IMG/VR virus record: IMGVR_UViG_2713896779_000020 | Strand: one strand, 5' to 3' | Source: a virus | Lineage: Duplodnaviria; Heunggongvirae; Uroviricota; Caudoviricetes | Length of the DNA: 13,805 nucleotides | Part shown: piece by piece, positions 6,615 through 10,963 of the stretch | How positions within the stretch are numbered: position 1 is the first letter of the stretch | Layout: each line of letters starts with the position of its first letter | The notes under the pieces: generated by a model | Database searches by the model: none | What the model was told of the DNA's origin: nothing | What the model saw: the letters and a program-made list of their open reading frames with translations, nothing else | Program-made: the position numbers and the translations under genes

Positions 6615-6902
6615 TCAGATAGAGAAGGGAAATTGTCGCCGAGAATGTGTCACGCTTACAATCTCAATGCTTGAAGCAGCTACTCTGTACAGGATTATGT
6701 AGTTAGGGTGGGTCACGATCTCTCTCAATCCAGAAACCCGTTCGCTTGGTGGATATAAGTACGGATGCTCAGATAGAGGTAATACCGATGTTTCAATGCG
6801 TATTTTTAGTCTACGTGCTGCCGGTGGGTTCTCCTTGGCGATGTAAGTTATGATCTGGCGCAAATCATCGCGAGCAGACGGTAGCCATAAAATGGGTAAC
6901 AT
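6615..6902 (-). CDS. parE: Type II toxin, RelE/ParE family (ParE2-like), 95 aa
   Basis: MLPILWLPSARDDLRQIITYIAKENPPAARRLKIRIETSVLPLSEHPYLYPPSERVSGLREIVTHPNYIILYRV... fits the ParE pattern as recalled. The start overlaps the antitoxin stop (TAATG). Confidence 0.7.
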   Translation of the reverse strand: MLPILWLPSARDDLRQIITYIAKENPPAARRLKIRIETSVLPLSEHPYLYPPSERVSGLREIVTHPNYIILYRVAASSIEIVSVTHSRRQFPFSI

Positions 6903-7093
6903 TACTCGCTCTTGTTAGTTACAGCAATTTGAGCAATAAGATTTTCCATTTCAGCCATTACCTCGTCATGTGGAATTGCGGGGCGAGTGTCTGCAAGGCT
7001 TGACGTTACTTTAGTGCGCAACCATTCGTTGTAACTGTTTTCTTGTTCGGTAGTTTCGAATTCTGAAACTATCGGAGAAAGGGCTGTACCCAT
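6902..7093 (-). CDS. paaA2: Antitoxin, PaaA2-like (ParE-associated antitoxin), 63 aa
   Basis: MGTALSPIVSEFETTEQENSYNEWLRTKVTSSLADTRPAIPHDEV... closely matches the PaaA2 sequence of E. coli O157 as I recall it (ALSPMVSEFETIEQENSYNEWLRAKV..SLAD.RPAIPHDEV). GAGGAG ribosome-binding site; immediately upstream of the toxin. Confidence 0.65.
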   Translation of the reverse strand: MGTALSPIVSEFETTEQENSYNEWLRTKVTSSLADTRPAIPHDEVMAEMENLIAQIAVTNKSE

Positions 7094-7120: not shown

Positions 7121-7522
7121 TCACGCCCGGCGGCTTTTTTGTGCCGCCAGCCACCTAGCAATGGTTTCTTCCATTGATTTTTTCTTGTCTTTGATTTCTT
7201 GAAGCATTTTTTCTTGGTCTTCCTCAGGAAACGCACTAAAAGCTTGGAGCAGTTCGCGTTGGCGAGGACCAATTTTCATCGTGTCAGGGGTGAAAATTTG
7301 CTCACACTCTTCAGGAGGCAATAAAAACCAATGCAATGGATGCCCTGAAACCTCAACCAGTTTATCCAAACTTGAGGCTTTAGGTGTAGCCTTACCGCTG
7401 ACCCATTGTTGAACAGTTTGTTGTGTCACACCAATTCTACGGGCAAGCTCAGCCTGGCTCCATCCAGTTTCCTGAAGAAGCTTGCTGATTCTGTACATAG
7501 ATACTTCTAGGGCGCTCATCAT
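7121..7522 (-). CDS. HTH_XRE transcriptional regulator, DicA/PaaR2-like; candidate prophage repressor
   Basis: Helix-turn-helix SQAELARRIGVTQQTVQQWVSGK near the N-terminus. First gene of the operon with the antitoxin and toxin, and divergent from the cro-like gene. The start is ambiguous: 7522 (MMSALEV...) or the internal ATG at 7498 (MYRISKLLQETGW...), the latter giving a more typical HTH N-terminus. Confidence 0.7.
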   Translation of the reverse strand: MMSALEVSMYRISKLLQETGWSQAELARRIGVTQQTVQQWVSGKATPKASSLDKLVEVSGHPLHWFLLPPEECEQIFTPDTMKIGPRQRELLQAFSAFPEEDQEKMLQEIKDKKKSMEETIARWLAAQKSRRA

Positions 7523-7563
7523 TATTCAATTTTACAGGTAAATACTGTTAAAAGCACCACAAT

Positions 7564-7602
7564 AAAAAACTGTTGATTGCATACAGTTTTTTATTGTAGG
7601 CT
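7564..7602 (+). promoter_or_regulatory. Rightward early promoter (PR-like) with overlapping operator, paralogous to the leftward unit
   Basis: AAAAAACTGT-N9-ACAGTTTTTT inverted repeat (7564-7592); -35 TTGATT (7573-7578), 18-bp spacer, -10 TAGGCT (7597-7602). An extra half-site ACTGTT lies at 7544-7549. GGAGG ribosome-binding site at 7621-7625 before the cro-like ATG. Confidence 0.5.
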
Positions 7603-7630
7603 TTGCTTATAGTTTTTAGAGGAGGGCAAA

Positions 7631-7903
7631 ATGCTAGATAGCACTCGCGAAAAAATTAGGCAGAAATACACTCAGGCTGAAATAGGTCGTTATATGGGGG
7701 TCGCTCAACAGACTGTTTGGCAATGGTTTAGCTTTGGCGTTCCCCCAAAGCAGGTAATTCCGTTATGCCAACTAATGAAGTGGGAAGTTACCCCGCATGA
7801 AATCCGCCCAGATATTTATCCTAACCCAACCGACGGTTTACCTGTTGGATGTAAGGTTAACACATCAAATGCGCCGGAGTTGATTCATGAAAATCAAGCA
7901 TGA
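7631..7903 (+). CDS. Cro/YdaS-like small HTH protein (90 aa)
   Basis: Divergent from the repressor. Helix-turn-helix GRYMGVAQQTVWQW. Strong ribosome-binding site. Confidence 0.7.
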   Translation: MLDSTREKIRQKYTQAEIGRYMGVAQQTVWQWFSFGVPPKQVIPLCQLMKWEVTPHEIRPDIYPNPTDGLPVGCKVNTSNAPELIHENQA

Positions 7904-8312
7904 ACACATCCGCATGGCGATGAATGCCTGGGCGCATCCGGACGGCGAAAAAGTACCGGCTGCGAAAATTACCAAAGCGTATTTCGAGCTGGGAATGACG
8001 TTCCCGGAACTGTATGACGACAGCCATCCGGAAGCCATGGCTCGCAATACTCAGAAAATTTTCCGCTGGGTGGAGAAAGACACTCCTGATGCGGTTAAAA
8101 AAATTCAGGCGTTGTTACCAGCGATCGAAAAAGCGATGCCGCCTCCGCTGGTGGCCCGAATGCGCAGCCACAGTTCCGCTTATTTTCGGGAGTTGGTAGA
8201 GACGAAGGAACGGCTGGTGAAAGATATTGATGATTTCGTTGCATCAGCGATCGTTCTGTTCGATCAGATGAATCGTGGTGGCCCGGCAGGAAACACTCTG
8301 GCTGTGCATTAA
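7887..8312 (+). CDS. ydaT: YdaT-like protein (141 aa)
   Basis: The N-terminus MKIKHEHI matches my recollection of Rac YdaT, and it has the same position after the cro-like gene. Its start overlaps the cro-like stop by 17 nt. Confidence 0.5.
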   Translation: MKIKHEHIRMAMNAWAHPDGEKVPAAKITKAYFELGMTFPELYDDSHPEAMARNTQKIFRWVEKDTPDAVKKIQALLPAIEKAMPPPLVARMRSHSSAYFRELVETKERLVKDIDDFVASAIVLFDQMNRGGPAGNTLAVH

Positions 8313-8325
8313 TTGGGTAATAAAT

Positions 8326-8835
8326 ATGAGTAATGACAAAAAATTGACACTGAGCGTTTACGAAAACAGTCCGCACATCTGGCGTGGCGGTTTATCTGAT
8401 GTGGAGCTGGCAGAGTGGTTGATACATAAAGCTAATGCGCTGCTCTGGCGTTTGTCAGCCAGAGAACAGCGCAAGGAAACCAGAATAAAGCTGGCTGATG
8501 CAGAAGCGTGTGCCGGGCTTATTGAGGATTATACAAATCTTGGTATTTCTTCAGCAGAGAGTGATCCCATTCAGCCTCTGAGCAGGGAGTCAATCCAGCA
8601 CGCTGGTTGTATGGCACATCTTGTAACTGCTCGTCAACATGAGGTGGGTATTGGATCACTTCCGGTGGGATATTCGCTGATTCCAGAGCTGGTTGAAGCA
8701 AGAAAATCAGTTCAGAAAAAGAGAGATGACGCACTTCAATTATTGAGAGAGCACTATGGCGCGATACCAGAATGCGAACAGCATCGATACCCTGAAGGTT
8801 ATGAATGGATGCAGTCTCTTTTTGAAGTTCGCTAA
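8326..8835 (+). CDS. Hypothetical protein (169 aa from the internal ATG)
   Basis: I chose ATG 8326 (MSNDKKLTLSVYENSPHIWRGG...) rather than the track start at 8275, which overlaps ydaT-like. No motif recognised. Confidence 0.5.
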   Translation: MSNDKKLTLSVYENSPHIWRGGLSDVELAEWLIHKANALLWRLSAREQRKETRIKLADAEACAGLIEDYTNLGISSAESDPIQPLSRESIQHAGCMAHLVTARQHEVGIGSLPVGYSLIPELVEARKSVQKKRDDALQLLREHYGAIPECEQHRYPEGYEWMQSLFEVR

Positions 8836-8941
8836 TCAATATGTCGAGACGAAGGTATGTTTCGGCGCGCAGCCAGGCTCTGTAATCCGGGAGCATTTCG
8901 GGGCTGTTACACCAGCGGTTTGTTGCTGCAACATTTAATAC

Positions 8942-10226
8942 ATGAGCCTGATAAAGGCTTTTCAAAAAATACATGTCGAACCTCCTCTGGTTCTGTCGAT
9001 TGGGAACCACAGATTATATCCGGAGGAAGGTTCGGCACCAGATGAGGTAGCCATGCGTGATTACGCAAAAGTTTCTCCGCGATTCTGGCTGGGAGAAACG
9101 GGGAGAGAACTTAGAAAGGCGGGTGCAGAAGCGCAAGTTGTTGCTTTTTACCTGATGACATCCCCTCACGCAAATATGCTGGGTTTGTATTACCTGCCAG
9201 TTTTATACCTTGCTCATGAAACCGGGCTTGGTCTGGAAGGGGCTTCAAAGGGGCTTAAAAGGGCTGTTGAAGCTGGTTTTTGTAGCTATGACCATGATGC
9301 AGAGATGGTCTGGGTCCATGAAATGGCAGCCTGGCAGGTTGGGGAAACGTTGAAGCCTGGCGATAACCGTTGTGCAGGTGTCAGGAATGAGTATGCATCA
9401 TTACCTGAAAACGCTTTTCTGTCAGTGTTTTACGACAGATATAAAACGGATTTCCATCTGGATGTGAGGCGGAATAATAGCCGAAATTCGGTAAGGGGCT
9501 TCGAAGGGGCTTTTAAGGGGCTTCGAAGCCAAGAACAGGAACAGGAGCAGGAGAAAGAACAGGAACAGGACAAAAACACTATGGTTCATGGCAAAAAAAA
9601 CACCACGAACCAGGCAGGGGATGTTCAGACCGTCAATCCTGGTCAGCCAGCAGGCACGACACCGNNNNNNNNNNNNNNNNNNNNNNNNNNNNNNNNNNNN
9701 NNNNNNNNNNNNNNAAGCCGATTCAGCGTATGCGCTGAAAGCCGATTCGGGCGCTGTGCAGCAGGTGATGACCGCAGGGTCGGAGCAATCACACCAACTG
9801 CAGCAGCCTGAAGCCGATTCCGCCATTCAGCGGGAAGCCGATCGGGTAGTCCCGGAAAGCACCGGGCAGTCTGTGGGACGAGTGGATTATCCGGATGTGT
9901 TCGAACAGGTCTGGCGGGAATACCCGTTGCGTGCTGGGGCAAACCCGAAGAAATCCGCTTTCAGTGCCTGGAAGGCCAGATTGCGCGAGGGGGTGCCACC
10001 AGAGACCATGCTGGATGGTGTGAGGCGTTACGCGAGATACCTGGCGGCGACCGGGAAAGCGGGAACGGAATTTGTTCAGCGAGCGACGACGTTTTTTGGG
10101 CCGGACCGGAATTTTGAAAACCCCTGGTTGCTCCCGGTAAGCGGCACGAACAACCAGCGTTGTGTGAATCATATTTCTGAACCGGATACCGAAATTCCGC
10201 CGGGATTCAGGGGTGATGTGGCATGA
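8942..10226 (+). CDS. Replication-initiation (O-like / YdaU-type) protein with a low-complexity linker; interrupted by a 50-N run
   Basis: Track ORFs 8942-9811 and 9588-10226 are each protein-like only on their own side of the gap (N-terminal part before it, C-terminal part ...DYPDVFEQVWREYPLRAGANPKKSAFSAWKARL... after it). The stop overlaps the start of the DnaC-like gene (ATGA). Single-gene status across the gap is an inference. Confidence 0.5.
9237..9523 (+). repeat. Two clusters of three phased direct repeats AAGGGGCTT (11-bp period) inside the replication gene; candidate iterons
   Basis: Cluster 1 copies start at 9237, 9248 and 9259 (the third is degenerate). Cluster 2 copies start at 9493, 9504 and 9515. 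Confidence 0.6.
9665..9714. other. Run of 50 N (assembly or scaffold gap, or masked bases) inside the replication gene
   Basis: Literal n characters. The flanks are repeat-rich: (GAACAG)n at 9531-9572 and AAGCCGATTC-type repeats at 9715-9844. Confidence 0.99.
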
Positions 10227-10963
10227 AAAACATTGCGGCAGCCGGGGTTCTTGAACGTATTCGCAGACTTGCACCACAGGCGTCGGTTCCACCGTACCGG
10301 ACGGTGGAGGAGTGGCGGGAATGGCAACTTGCTGAAGGACGAAAACGCAGCGAGGAGATTAACCGCCAGAATCACCAGTTGCGGGTGGAAAAAATCCTGA
10401 ATCGTTCGGGCATCCAGCCTCTGCACAGCAAATGCTCGTTTGCGAATTATCAGGTGCAGAACGACGGGCAAAAATACGCGCTGAGCCAGGCCAAATCCAT
10501 AGCTGACGAACTGATGACCGGGTGCACGAATTTTGTGTTCAGCGGTAAAACCGGCACCGGGAAAAATCACCTTGCAGCGGCGATGGGTAACCGGCTGATG
10601 GCGAAGGGGCGCAGCGTGATTATCGTCACCGTGTCTGATGTCATGAGCGTGTTGCATGACAGCTACGACAACGGCAAATCCGGGGAAAAATTTTTACAGG
10701 AGCTTTGCAGTGTTGATTTGCTGGTCCTGGATGAAATAGGCGTTCAGCGGGAGACGAAAAACGAGCAGGTGGTATTACACCAGATAATTGATCGCCGGAC
10801 AGCATCACTGTGCAGTGTCGGGATGTTAACAAACCTGAATCATGCCGCAATGAGTACACTTCTTGGTGAGAGGATTATGGACCGCATGACCATGAACGGT
10901 GGTCGATGGGTGACGTTTAACTGGGATAGCTGGCGGTCAAACGTTGGACGTCAGGGTATGTGA
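10223..10963 (+). CDS. DnaC-like helicase loader / IstB-type AAA+ ATPase (246 aa)
   Basis: Walker A FSGKTGTGKNHLA and Walker B LLVLDEIG. Start overlaps the stop of the preceding replication gene, typical of O-P-like pairs. Confidence 0.85.
   Translation: MKNIAAAGVLERIRRLAPQASVPPYRTVEEWREWQLAEGRKRSEEINRQNHQLRVEKILNRSGIQPLHSKCSFANYQVQNDGQKYALSQAKSIADELMTGCTNFVFSGKTGTGKNHLAAAMGNRLMAKGRSVIIVTVSDVMSVLHDSYDNGKSGEKFLQELCSVDLLVLDEIGVQRETKNEQVVLHQIIDRRTASLCSVGMLTNLNHAAMSTLLGERIMDRMTMNGGRWVTFNWDSWRSNVGRQGM

Follow-up and report, generated by a model that had tools for sequence, protein, structure and literature searches.

The 13,805-nucleotide stretch of DNA analysed here (IMG/VR record IMGVR_UViG_2713896779_000020; 13.8 kb, hereafter the window) is a lambdoid prophage of enterohaemorrhagic Escherichia coli. 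Our subject is a set of 9-bp boxes that an earlier reading of the sequence alone (the original prediction) had placed inside a replication gene and proposed to be origin iterons. The boxes do lie within the replication-initiator-like gene of the window, in its N-terminal half; the coordinates of the gene, the boxes and the surrounding features are given in Table 1. The 9-mer AAGGGGCTT occurs as five exact copies in the window, all on the + strand, starting at positions 9237, 9248, 9493, 9504 and 9515. Dinucleotide-preserving shuffles gave a mean of 0.10 copies, and none of 200 shuffles reached five. A search allowing one mismatch added a single unrelated site, at 2441.

The boxes form two clusters. 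The start-to-start distance is 11 bp (one helical turn) within both, as had been predicted, and Tandem Repeats Finder assigns a period of 11 to each. Since 11 is not divisible by 3, each box is read in a different frame from the one before it, which the original prediction had also pointed out. Its description of two clusters of three direct 9-mers holds for cluster 2, which has three exact copies, and has to be amended for cluster 1, which has two exact copies followed by an in-phase third with a 7/9 match. Likewise, the separation of 245 bp that it gave is correct for the interval from 9248 to 9493, while the distance from first box to first box is 256 bp. The repeats as such are therefore confirmed, with a slight correction to the copy count of cluster 1. 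The position of the third cluster-1 box (9259) is not conserved in the family: three cluster-1 boxes were found in 4 of the 74 representative orthologues described below. The palindrome that closes cluster 2 includes a conserved terminal half-box, GAAGC (9525–9529), and in almost all orthologues AAGCCAAGA follows directly after the last cluster-2 box.

Table 1. Features of the early region of the prophage, in window coordinates.
Feature	Position	Strand	Basis or remark
cI-like repressor	7121–7522	-	
YdaS/Cro-like gene	7631–7903	+	
YdaT-like gene	7887–8312	+	
ECs1072-family gene, between YdaT-like gene and initiator	8519–8974	-	
Replication-initiator-like gene	9053–10226	+	translation; PHROG labels
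Codons of helix 3 in the predicted winged helix (residues 60–73, GLEGASKGLKRAVE; normally the recognition helix)	9230–9271	+	overlap cluster 1
Cluster 1, two exact AAGGGGCTT boxes (9237–9245, 9248–9256)	9237–9256	+	family consensus GAAGGGGCTTCNAAGGGGCTT; gene offsets 185/196 in nearly all orthologues
Degenerate in-phase third box of cluster 1, AAAGGGCTG (7/9 match)	9259–9267	+	read from sequence
AT-richer spacer just upstream of cluster 2, tentative candidate DNA-unwinding region	9395–9480	.	GC dip
Cluster 2, three exact AAGGGGCTT boxes (9493, 9504, 9515), direct in the window	9493–9523	+	11-bp phase
Perfect 12-bp palindrome GGCTTCGAAGCC closing cluster 2	9519–9530	+	inverted repeat
(GAACAG)n hexanucleotide repeats encoding the QEQEQE linker	9533–9578	+	Tandem Repeats Finder periods 6 and 18
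DnaT-like C-terminal tail RCVNHISEPDTEIPPGFRG	10158–10214	+	profile match, NCBIfam match
DnaC-like helicase-loader gene, start overlapping the initiator stop codon	10223–10963	+	Pfam, NCBIfam, PHROG
DUF1627, then DUF977	downstream of loader	+	

The conservation of the boxes was examined in 74 non-redundant representatives of the gene (<90% amino-acid identity, the most distant 46%), drawn from the initial relatives plus 159 loci from IMG/VR and GTDB genomes. The same 9-mer is found at the same gene offsets in orthologues with 64–77% DNA identity, in Shigella, Klebsiella, Acinetobacter, Ralstonia and E. coli phages. Cluster 2 is present in 74/74 representatives and cluster 1 in 70/74, and 139 of 157 pairs of adjacent boxes are spaced by 11 bp. 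Box matches are concentrated in the two zones, with 301 there versus 31 elsewhere in 570 nt. Third codon positions are conserved at 77–97% only at residues 62–68 and 151–159, against a background of 30–60%. Codon choice in the boxes is correspondingly narrow when compared with the rest of the N-terminal domain: glycine is encoded by GGG in 124 of 135 cases (92%) versus 130 of 616 (21%), and leucine by CTT in 64 of 72 (89%) versus 107 of 833 (13%). Glutamate is GAA in 62/62 cases (50% elsewhere), the serine at position 159 is AGC in 68/68 (112/534, or 21%, at other serines of the domain), AAG is used in 64/64 at cluster 1, and for proline the figures are 52/55 for CCT and 53/58 for CCC (24% and 21% elsewhere, respectively).

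Cluster 2 also changes its orientation. Of the 74 representatives, 50 have it inverted (the coding strand then reads AAGCCCCTT), 12 including the window have it direct, and another 12 are mixed. With the inversion, the encoded EGASKGL becomes EAPSKPL. On a neighbour-joining tree, parsimony requires at least seven changes between the direct and other orientations, with an inverted root state. The box pair is exclusive to the initiator gene in the 3.5-kb loci, save for two exceptions just upstream. At the level of comparative sequence evidence, these data demonstrate that the boxes are kept by selection on the DNA. The original prediction had made the same claim from the window alone and had named synonymous-site conservation in related phages as a comparison that could overturn it. 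The outcome in the 74 orthologues was favourable to the claim, since synonymous sites are frozen at the two clusters only and the inversions change the peptide.

Three further observations were made on box variation and codon use. In two loci from a metagenome-assembled genome of an uncultured gammaproteobacterium (L150 and L162, offsets ∼425–470), the AAG...CTT flanks are kept and the central three bases vary (AAGGCCCTT, AAGGGGGTT, GAACCCCTT), which hints that the symmetric flanks may be the main determinant of the box. A close relative (L043, IMGVR_UViG_2703718771_000009, 1685–1715) has an extra 11-bp cluster-1 box, giving offsets 185, 196 and 207; it frameshifts the initiator gene, which reaches a stop after ∼104 codons. 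Evidently, slippage at the boxes can inactivate their own gene. We also asked whether codon bias in the QE linker proves selection on the DNA; this was unconvincing, as GAA/GAG usage there is close to that of the rest of the gene.

The protein encoded by the box-bearing gene begins with an N-terminal winged-helix domain (residues ∼1–140), continues through a low-complexity linker of Gln/Glu and a variable region, and ends in a DnaT-like domain. It is matched by PHROG 1701, 3729 and 270, which are labelled “replication initiation protein” or “DnaD-like helicase loader”. No Pfam family was found for the N-terminal domain, the C-terminal part or the full-length protein, the last being searched to E-values up to 10. 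The N-terminal domain is predicted to be a winged helix on the basis of a structure model with helix-strand-helix-helix-hairpin topology, which is structurally similar to solved winged helices. This model was used in place of an earlier full-length one (predicted local distance difference test score 54), with which Foldseek returned no significant match. Residues 145–160, encoded by cluster 2, are disordered in the structure model. A profile of the C-terminal domain aligns weakly, over the whole domain, with DnaT C-domain structures in the PDB (6aep, E 0.017; 2ru8, E 0.097; 9zbt, E 0.35). The NCBIfam DnaT model matches the tail with E 0.0019, far below the family cutoff, and the terminal PD..IP.GFRG motif is near-identical. 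In a comparison of the window with L001, L002, L003, L170 and L373, the tail ...SEPD..IP.GFRG is restricted to loci in which the next gene is an enterobacterial DnaC-like loader; it is absent from loci with a primase/helicase partner (Fraca group) and from those in Acinetobacter and Ralstonia phages. The tail presumably contacts the complex of DnaC-like loader and DnaB.

Over its first 612 nt the gene is 100% identical to chromosomal prophages of O157:H7, O26 and O103. The protein of the window ends in ...GFRGDVA, overlapping the loader start, and the O157 reference differs here. A run of 50 N (9665–9714) masks part of the variable middle of the gene, and the apparent reading frame shifts across it. 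The variable middle (9665–9842) has an insert relative to O157 strain PV15-279. The motif AAGCCGAT(TC) is found at 9715, 9739, 9811 and 9835, encoding EADS/EADR peptide repeats; it differs from an inverted box (AAGCCCCTT) in two of its bases.

The loader encoded by the next gene is matched by Pfam IstB_IS21 (3.5e-19) and also by Bac_DnaA, by NCBIfam PRK12377 (1.3e-151) and by the DnaC equivalog (8.7e-90, below the model's own cutoff). It belongs to PHROG 50, “DnaC-like helicase loader”.

Relatives of the protein indicate that the N-terminal domain and the boxes form a unit. A paralogue in the Klebsiella phage ST13-OXA48phi12.4 (L170) is 31% identical in the N-terminal domain and has the same linker, DnaT-like C-domain and DnaC partner. 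Its boxes differ in sequence: AAAGGGTTT is found twice (offsets 176 and 187), as is AAAGGGTTC (408 and 419). The 11-bp phase is kept, and here too the second cluster lies against the linker, in another reading frame. This layout holds in 62 distinct relatives. Judged by these sequences, box sequence and N-terminal domain change together in the L170 subfamily. The N-terminal domain and its boxes are also joined to varied C-termini and partner genes, which are DnaC-like, primase/helicase or others. A mosaic joint is seen just after the linker: from 9573 onwards, the DNA is 92–96% identical to O genes with unrelated N-terminal domains. The N-terminal domain plus boxes has the features of a module for origin specificity, of the kind that lambda O has in its N-terminal domain; here the domain would bind the boxes.

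To see how far the boxes extend, IMG/VR was scanned with the DNA pattern AAGGGGCTTNNAAGGGGCTT alone, which gave at least 120 loci. Among the 120 matches listed, 81 have the N-terminal domain with boxes at the expected offsets, and 39 are without a BLAST-detectable homologue. In most of the 39 loci the boxes lie in two clusters inside an open reading frame of 210–270 residues on a low-GC contig. In these low-GC frames the second cluster is followed immediately by a linker of low complexity, (KD)n, (MD)n, (GNG)n or (NS)n, and the boxes are read as RGLQGAYK, EGA(S/C/L)KGL or KPLxSPLQGA. The C-terminal halves of the proteins match replication-initiator PHROGs, and PHROG 270 matches both the low-GC proteins and the Klebsiella paralogue. 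Examples, among loci L252–L371, are L255 5676–6335, L348 2366–3121 and L265 3314–4057. The two low-GC families share homology with one another (E 6e-22); when the profile of the window family was compared with theirs, the result was weak or negative (E 0.0088 and 0.19). Shared N-terminal motifs, layout and PHROG suggest that the low-GC proteins are probably remote homologues of the window family.

From these observations we consider it likely that the boxes are iterons bound by the protein of their own gene and that, together with the DNA around cluster 2, they constitute the replication origin of the prophage. The arrangement would then be a variant of the lambda-type origin inside the initiator gene. 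The array lies inside the initiator coding sequence, as five exact boxes and one degenerate box, and its position is kept in the 74 representatives. The boxes always accompany the winged-helix N-terminal domain, whichever C-terminal domain or partner gene follows, and both the mosaic joint and the varied partners support a two-domain initiator whose C-domain can be exchanged to suit the helicase or loader gene beside it. The iteron reading of the original prediction thus gains support from the frozen synonymous sites, the inversions, the paralogue boxes, the winged-helix N-terminal domain and the adjoining DnaC-like gene, from which we infer origin function.

We propose that monomers of the N-terminal domain would bind successive boxes on one face of the helix and form a nucleoprotein complex at each cluster. 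Cluster 2 is probably the core, as it is universal in the family and abuts the linker, and cluster 1 would probably be auxiliary, acting in looping or cooperative loading. The complex may then destabilise the less stable DNA beside cluster 2, at 9395–9480 and/or at the purine-rich hexamers 9533–9578. The GC content is 0.35–0.40 at 9400–9489 versus about 0.50, and at third codon positions it is 0.37–0.49 for residues 136–175 versus 0.6–0.75 elsewhere. The hexanucleotide repeats encoding the linker have a purine fraction of 0.72–0.75 on the + strand, and are a second candidate for an easily opened or single-strand-binding tract. Among 70 representatives, GC lies 8–10% below the locus mean at gene offsets 350–425 and 7–8% below it at the linker. 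The DnaT-like C-terminal domain would recruit host DnaB bound to the phage DnaC-like loader. Transcription through the origin may aid activation, as in lambda, because the origin would belong to the early rightward operon and lie downstream of the cI-like and cro-like genes (7121–7903).

Several points weigh against this interpretation. The least stable 40-mer of the gene (9414–9454) is only in the top 9.5% of the window, making it a weak AT-rich element, and the GC dip in the family is modest and partly due to amino-acid composition. There are no DnaA boxes within 8800–10300. Cluster 1 has been lost from some lineages, which makes its role uncertain. The Fisher tests of codon choice in the boxes (p from 1e-10 to 1e-56) count related sequences as independent, with an effect that is nevertheless very large. 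That low-GC initiators with another helix 3 retain the identical 9-mer is unusual for initiator-specific iterons. Finally, the replication proteins of the Shiga toxin (Stx) phage type “Eru4”, which carries orthologues, have been described as of unknown function (PMC8951638).

The boxes could be bound by the initiator and yet have a regulatory role, in road-block autorepression or in “handcuffing” of the clusters, with the true unwinding site elsewhere. Two separate clusters of variable relative orientation would fit looping or pairing, the AT-rich element nearby is weak, and some lineages can do without cluster 1. Nevertheless, the 1.5-kb flanks of the orthologous loci contain no other conserved repeat array or AT-rich tract, and cluster 2 is universal and always placed at the joint of N-terminal domain and linker, beside the two lowest-GC segments. 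In lambda the same sites serve both jobs (PMC7466680). We regard a purely regulatory role as unlikely.

That the same box is kept while helix 3 differs is the main reason why room is left for another reader of the box, which could be a conserved host or phage factor; alternatively, the boxes could be short joints that promote recombinational exchange of replication modules. The 39 of 120 listed IMG/VR loci that have the identical 9-mer pair, a different helix 3 and no BLAST-detectable N-terminal homologue speak for such an explanation, as does the mosaic joint 50 bp downstream of cluster 2. However, the low-GC proteins are probably remote homologues, given the same N-terminal motifs, layout and PHROG 270, though their link to the window is weak (E 0.0088), and a single host factor across hosts of such differing GC is improbable. 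The covariation of box and N-terminal domain in the L170 subfamily also counts against it, and 9–20 bp is too short for recombination to drive retention across phyla. Both versions appear decidedly unlikely to us.

A long-range stem between the clusters, formed in mRNA or in unwound single-stranded DNA and serving translational control, primosome assembly or single-strand initiation, is suggested by two facts: most of the family carries cluster 2 as the reverse complement of cluster 1, from which a stem of 9+9 bp would result, and the protein that the C-domain resembles, DnaT, belongs to the primosome. We find it highly improbable, as the clusters are direct and unable to pair in the window and in 11 other representative lineages, the orientation has flipped at least seven times, and mixed clusters exist. 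The predicted RNA fold of 9225–9535 consists of local hairpins only (z = -2.5), with no pairing between the clusters, and there is no Rfam match in 8700–10300 at E ≤ 1; an RNA element was therefore dropped for the window.

Scarcely credible is a duplication at the protein level (EGASKGL twice) kept alike by gene conversion and with no role of the DNA: many orthologues do read both clusters in the same frames, encoding EGASKGL, but sequence comparison indicates that a protein-level repeat cannot account for the frozen codons, the phase and the inversions, and the synonymous sites frozen across 46–90% amino-acid identity and the EAPSKPL of inverted boxes refute it. The other frames used in the window, the L170 subfamily and the low-GC families (GFEGAFKGL, KLKGSERVL, RGLQGAYK, KPLxSPLQGA) and the disorder of the segment encoded by cluster 2 also speak against it.

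Separately, we rejected AAGGGG as an internal Shine-Dalgarno sequence or translational pause site, because the inverted boxes lose it and there is no start codon at the right distance.

A wider extension of the origin interpretation can be put forward tentatively, although we hold it to be rather doubtful: a near-palindromic 9-bp box, (G)AAG-GGG-CTT(C), would be the common origin element of a huge, unnamed superfamily of initiators in proteobacterial and low-GC hosts. The box may then be frozen while the proteins diverge past detection by BLAST. Since cluster 1 codes for the putative recognition helix, it could lock reader and site together, which would partly explain the frozen box, and the free orientation of the box may stem from its symmetric flanks. 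The hexanucleotide repeats of the linkers, (QE)n, (KD)n, (MD)n or (GNG)n, may themselves be selected as DNA, as a strand-opening or single-strand-binding tract.

In the early region of the window (Table 1), a RelE/RelB toxin-antitoxin pair (6615–7093, - strand) adjoins the cI-like repressor gene. This pair and the ECs1072-family gene look like accessory insertions.

With 4089 clusters at 50% identity, of which 2380 reach E ≤ 1e-10, the family defined by the N-terminal domain is large; it has no Pfam model. The full query segment, i.e., the first 612 nt of the gene, is present in at least 468 of the 5426 complete E. coli genomes. The phage collection holds 22 records with the N-terminal domain, none of which is an experimentally studied model phage, and no plasmid in the plasmid collection has the module as its replicon. 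A 32-kb Klebsiella “plasmid” (L372, NZ_CP069825.1) is a linear contig with chromosomal genes (cytosine permease) and a prophage that carries the module, and is probably mislabelled.

The family includes the Eru4 replication type of Shiga-toxin phages, and the paper defining the non-lambdoid Eru types says of the proteins replicating those phages that nothing is known about them (PMC8951638). With the candidate origin narrowed to ∼300 bp and its boxes synonymously recodable, the question of Eru4 replication becomes directly testable. Phage replication level sets toxin gene dosage after induction, and because of this control the candidate origin bears on virulence. If the proposed origin is real, it offers a second way, different in structure, of placing an origin inside the initiator gene, and is an unusual case of a binding site conserved far deeper than its presumed reader protein.

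Among the matches listed, we found no description of the boxes in the searchable literature, whose coverage excludes the review “Bacteriophage replication modules” (Weigel and Seitz, 2006), and on Eru4 we found only the defining paper and its preprint. In that paper Eru4 is a protein of unknown function plus a “helicase”, and no origin or repeats are mentioned (PMC8951638). In the Eru4 reference, Shigella phage 75/02 Stx, there is an orthologue with a DnaC-like gene after it, as in the window; nucleotide identity is 74.6% over 91% of the first 612 nt, and amino-acid identity is 73% across residues 1–204. The boxes are the same there, lying at offsets 185/196 and, in inverted form, at 440/451, whereas cluster 2 of the window is direct and has three copies. 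The immunity regions differ as well, being YdaS/YdaT-like in the window and cII-like in the reference phage.

A parallel in gene order is the ydaU-ydaV module of the Rac prophage of E. coli K-12, the site of oriJ (Diaz and Pritchard, 1970s). It occupies the same slot and has the same order, ydaS-like, ydaT-like, initiator, DnaC-like and DUF977, as well as the same tail, ...PD..IPPGFRG. Only this tail is common to the two proteins, as the N-terminal domain of YdaU is an unrelated DUF1376. In the middle of Rac ydaU (L373, NC_000913.3 1419500–1423500; 1972–2078) there are repeats (A/C)AGRTGTTCAA at 1972, 2005, 2038 and 2050, at 33-bp spacing versus 11 bp for AAGGGGCTT in the window, and also an inverted pair ATGTTCAAACA/TGTTTGAACAT. 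It is possible that the mid-gene repeats are iterons of Rac oriJ.

Iteron plasmids (RepE of F, π of R6K, RepA of pPS10/pSC101) have iterons of 17–22 bp at ∼22-bp phase outside the rep gene, in contrast to the intragenic boxes of the window, and a Pfam search detected no Rep_3-type similarity in the window initiator. In E. coli oriC, the low-affinity DnaA boxes are 9-mers 2 bp apart, in two arrays of opposite orientation. The boxes described here resemble these arrays in their length, their 2-bp spacers (11-bp phase) and, in the ancestral arrangement of the family, the opposite orientation of the arrays. This may be taken as an analogy only, since the box sequence differs, DnaA boxes are lacking, and the initiator is a small winged-helix protein and not an AAA+ ATPase.

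The original prediction had drawn a parallel with lambda, whose ori-lambda indeed sits centrally within the O gene with P downstream (PMC7466680). As in the lambda ori/O/P unit and in the Stx phages 933W and P27, the repeats of the window lie inside the initiator gene and the loader gene is directly next. The initiator appears to have two domains, as O does, a repeat-specific N-terminal domain and a loader-recruiting C-terminal domain, the unit lies in an early rightward operon under cI/cro-type control, and the number of repeats varies between phages. The components are nonetheless different from those of lambda. The window protein is no homologue of O (no Pfam Phage_rep_O match), the loader is DnaC-like rather than P, and the C-domain is DnaT-like. 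The boxes measure 9 bp at 11-bp phase, versus ∼19 bp for the lambda iterons, and form two clusters ∼250 bp apart, of variable orientation and without a strong AT-rich tract, instead of a single array, with cluster 1 overlapping the codons of the putative recognition helix.

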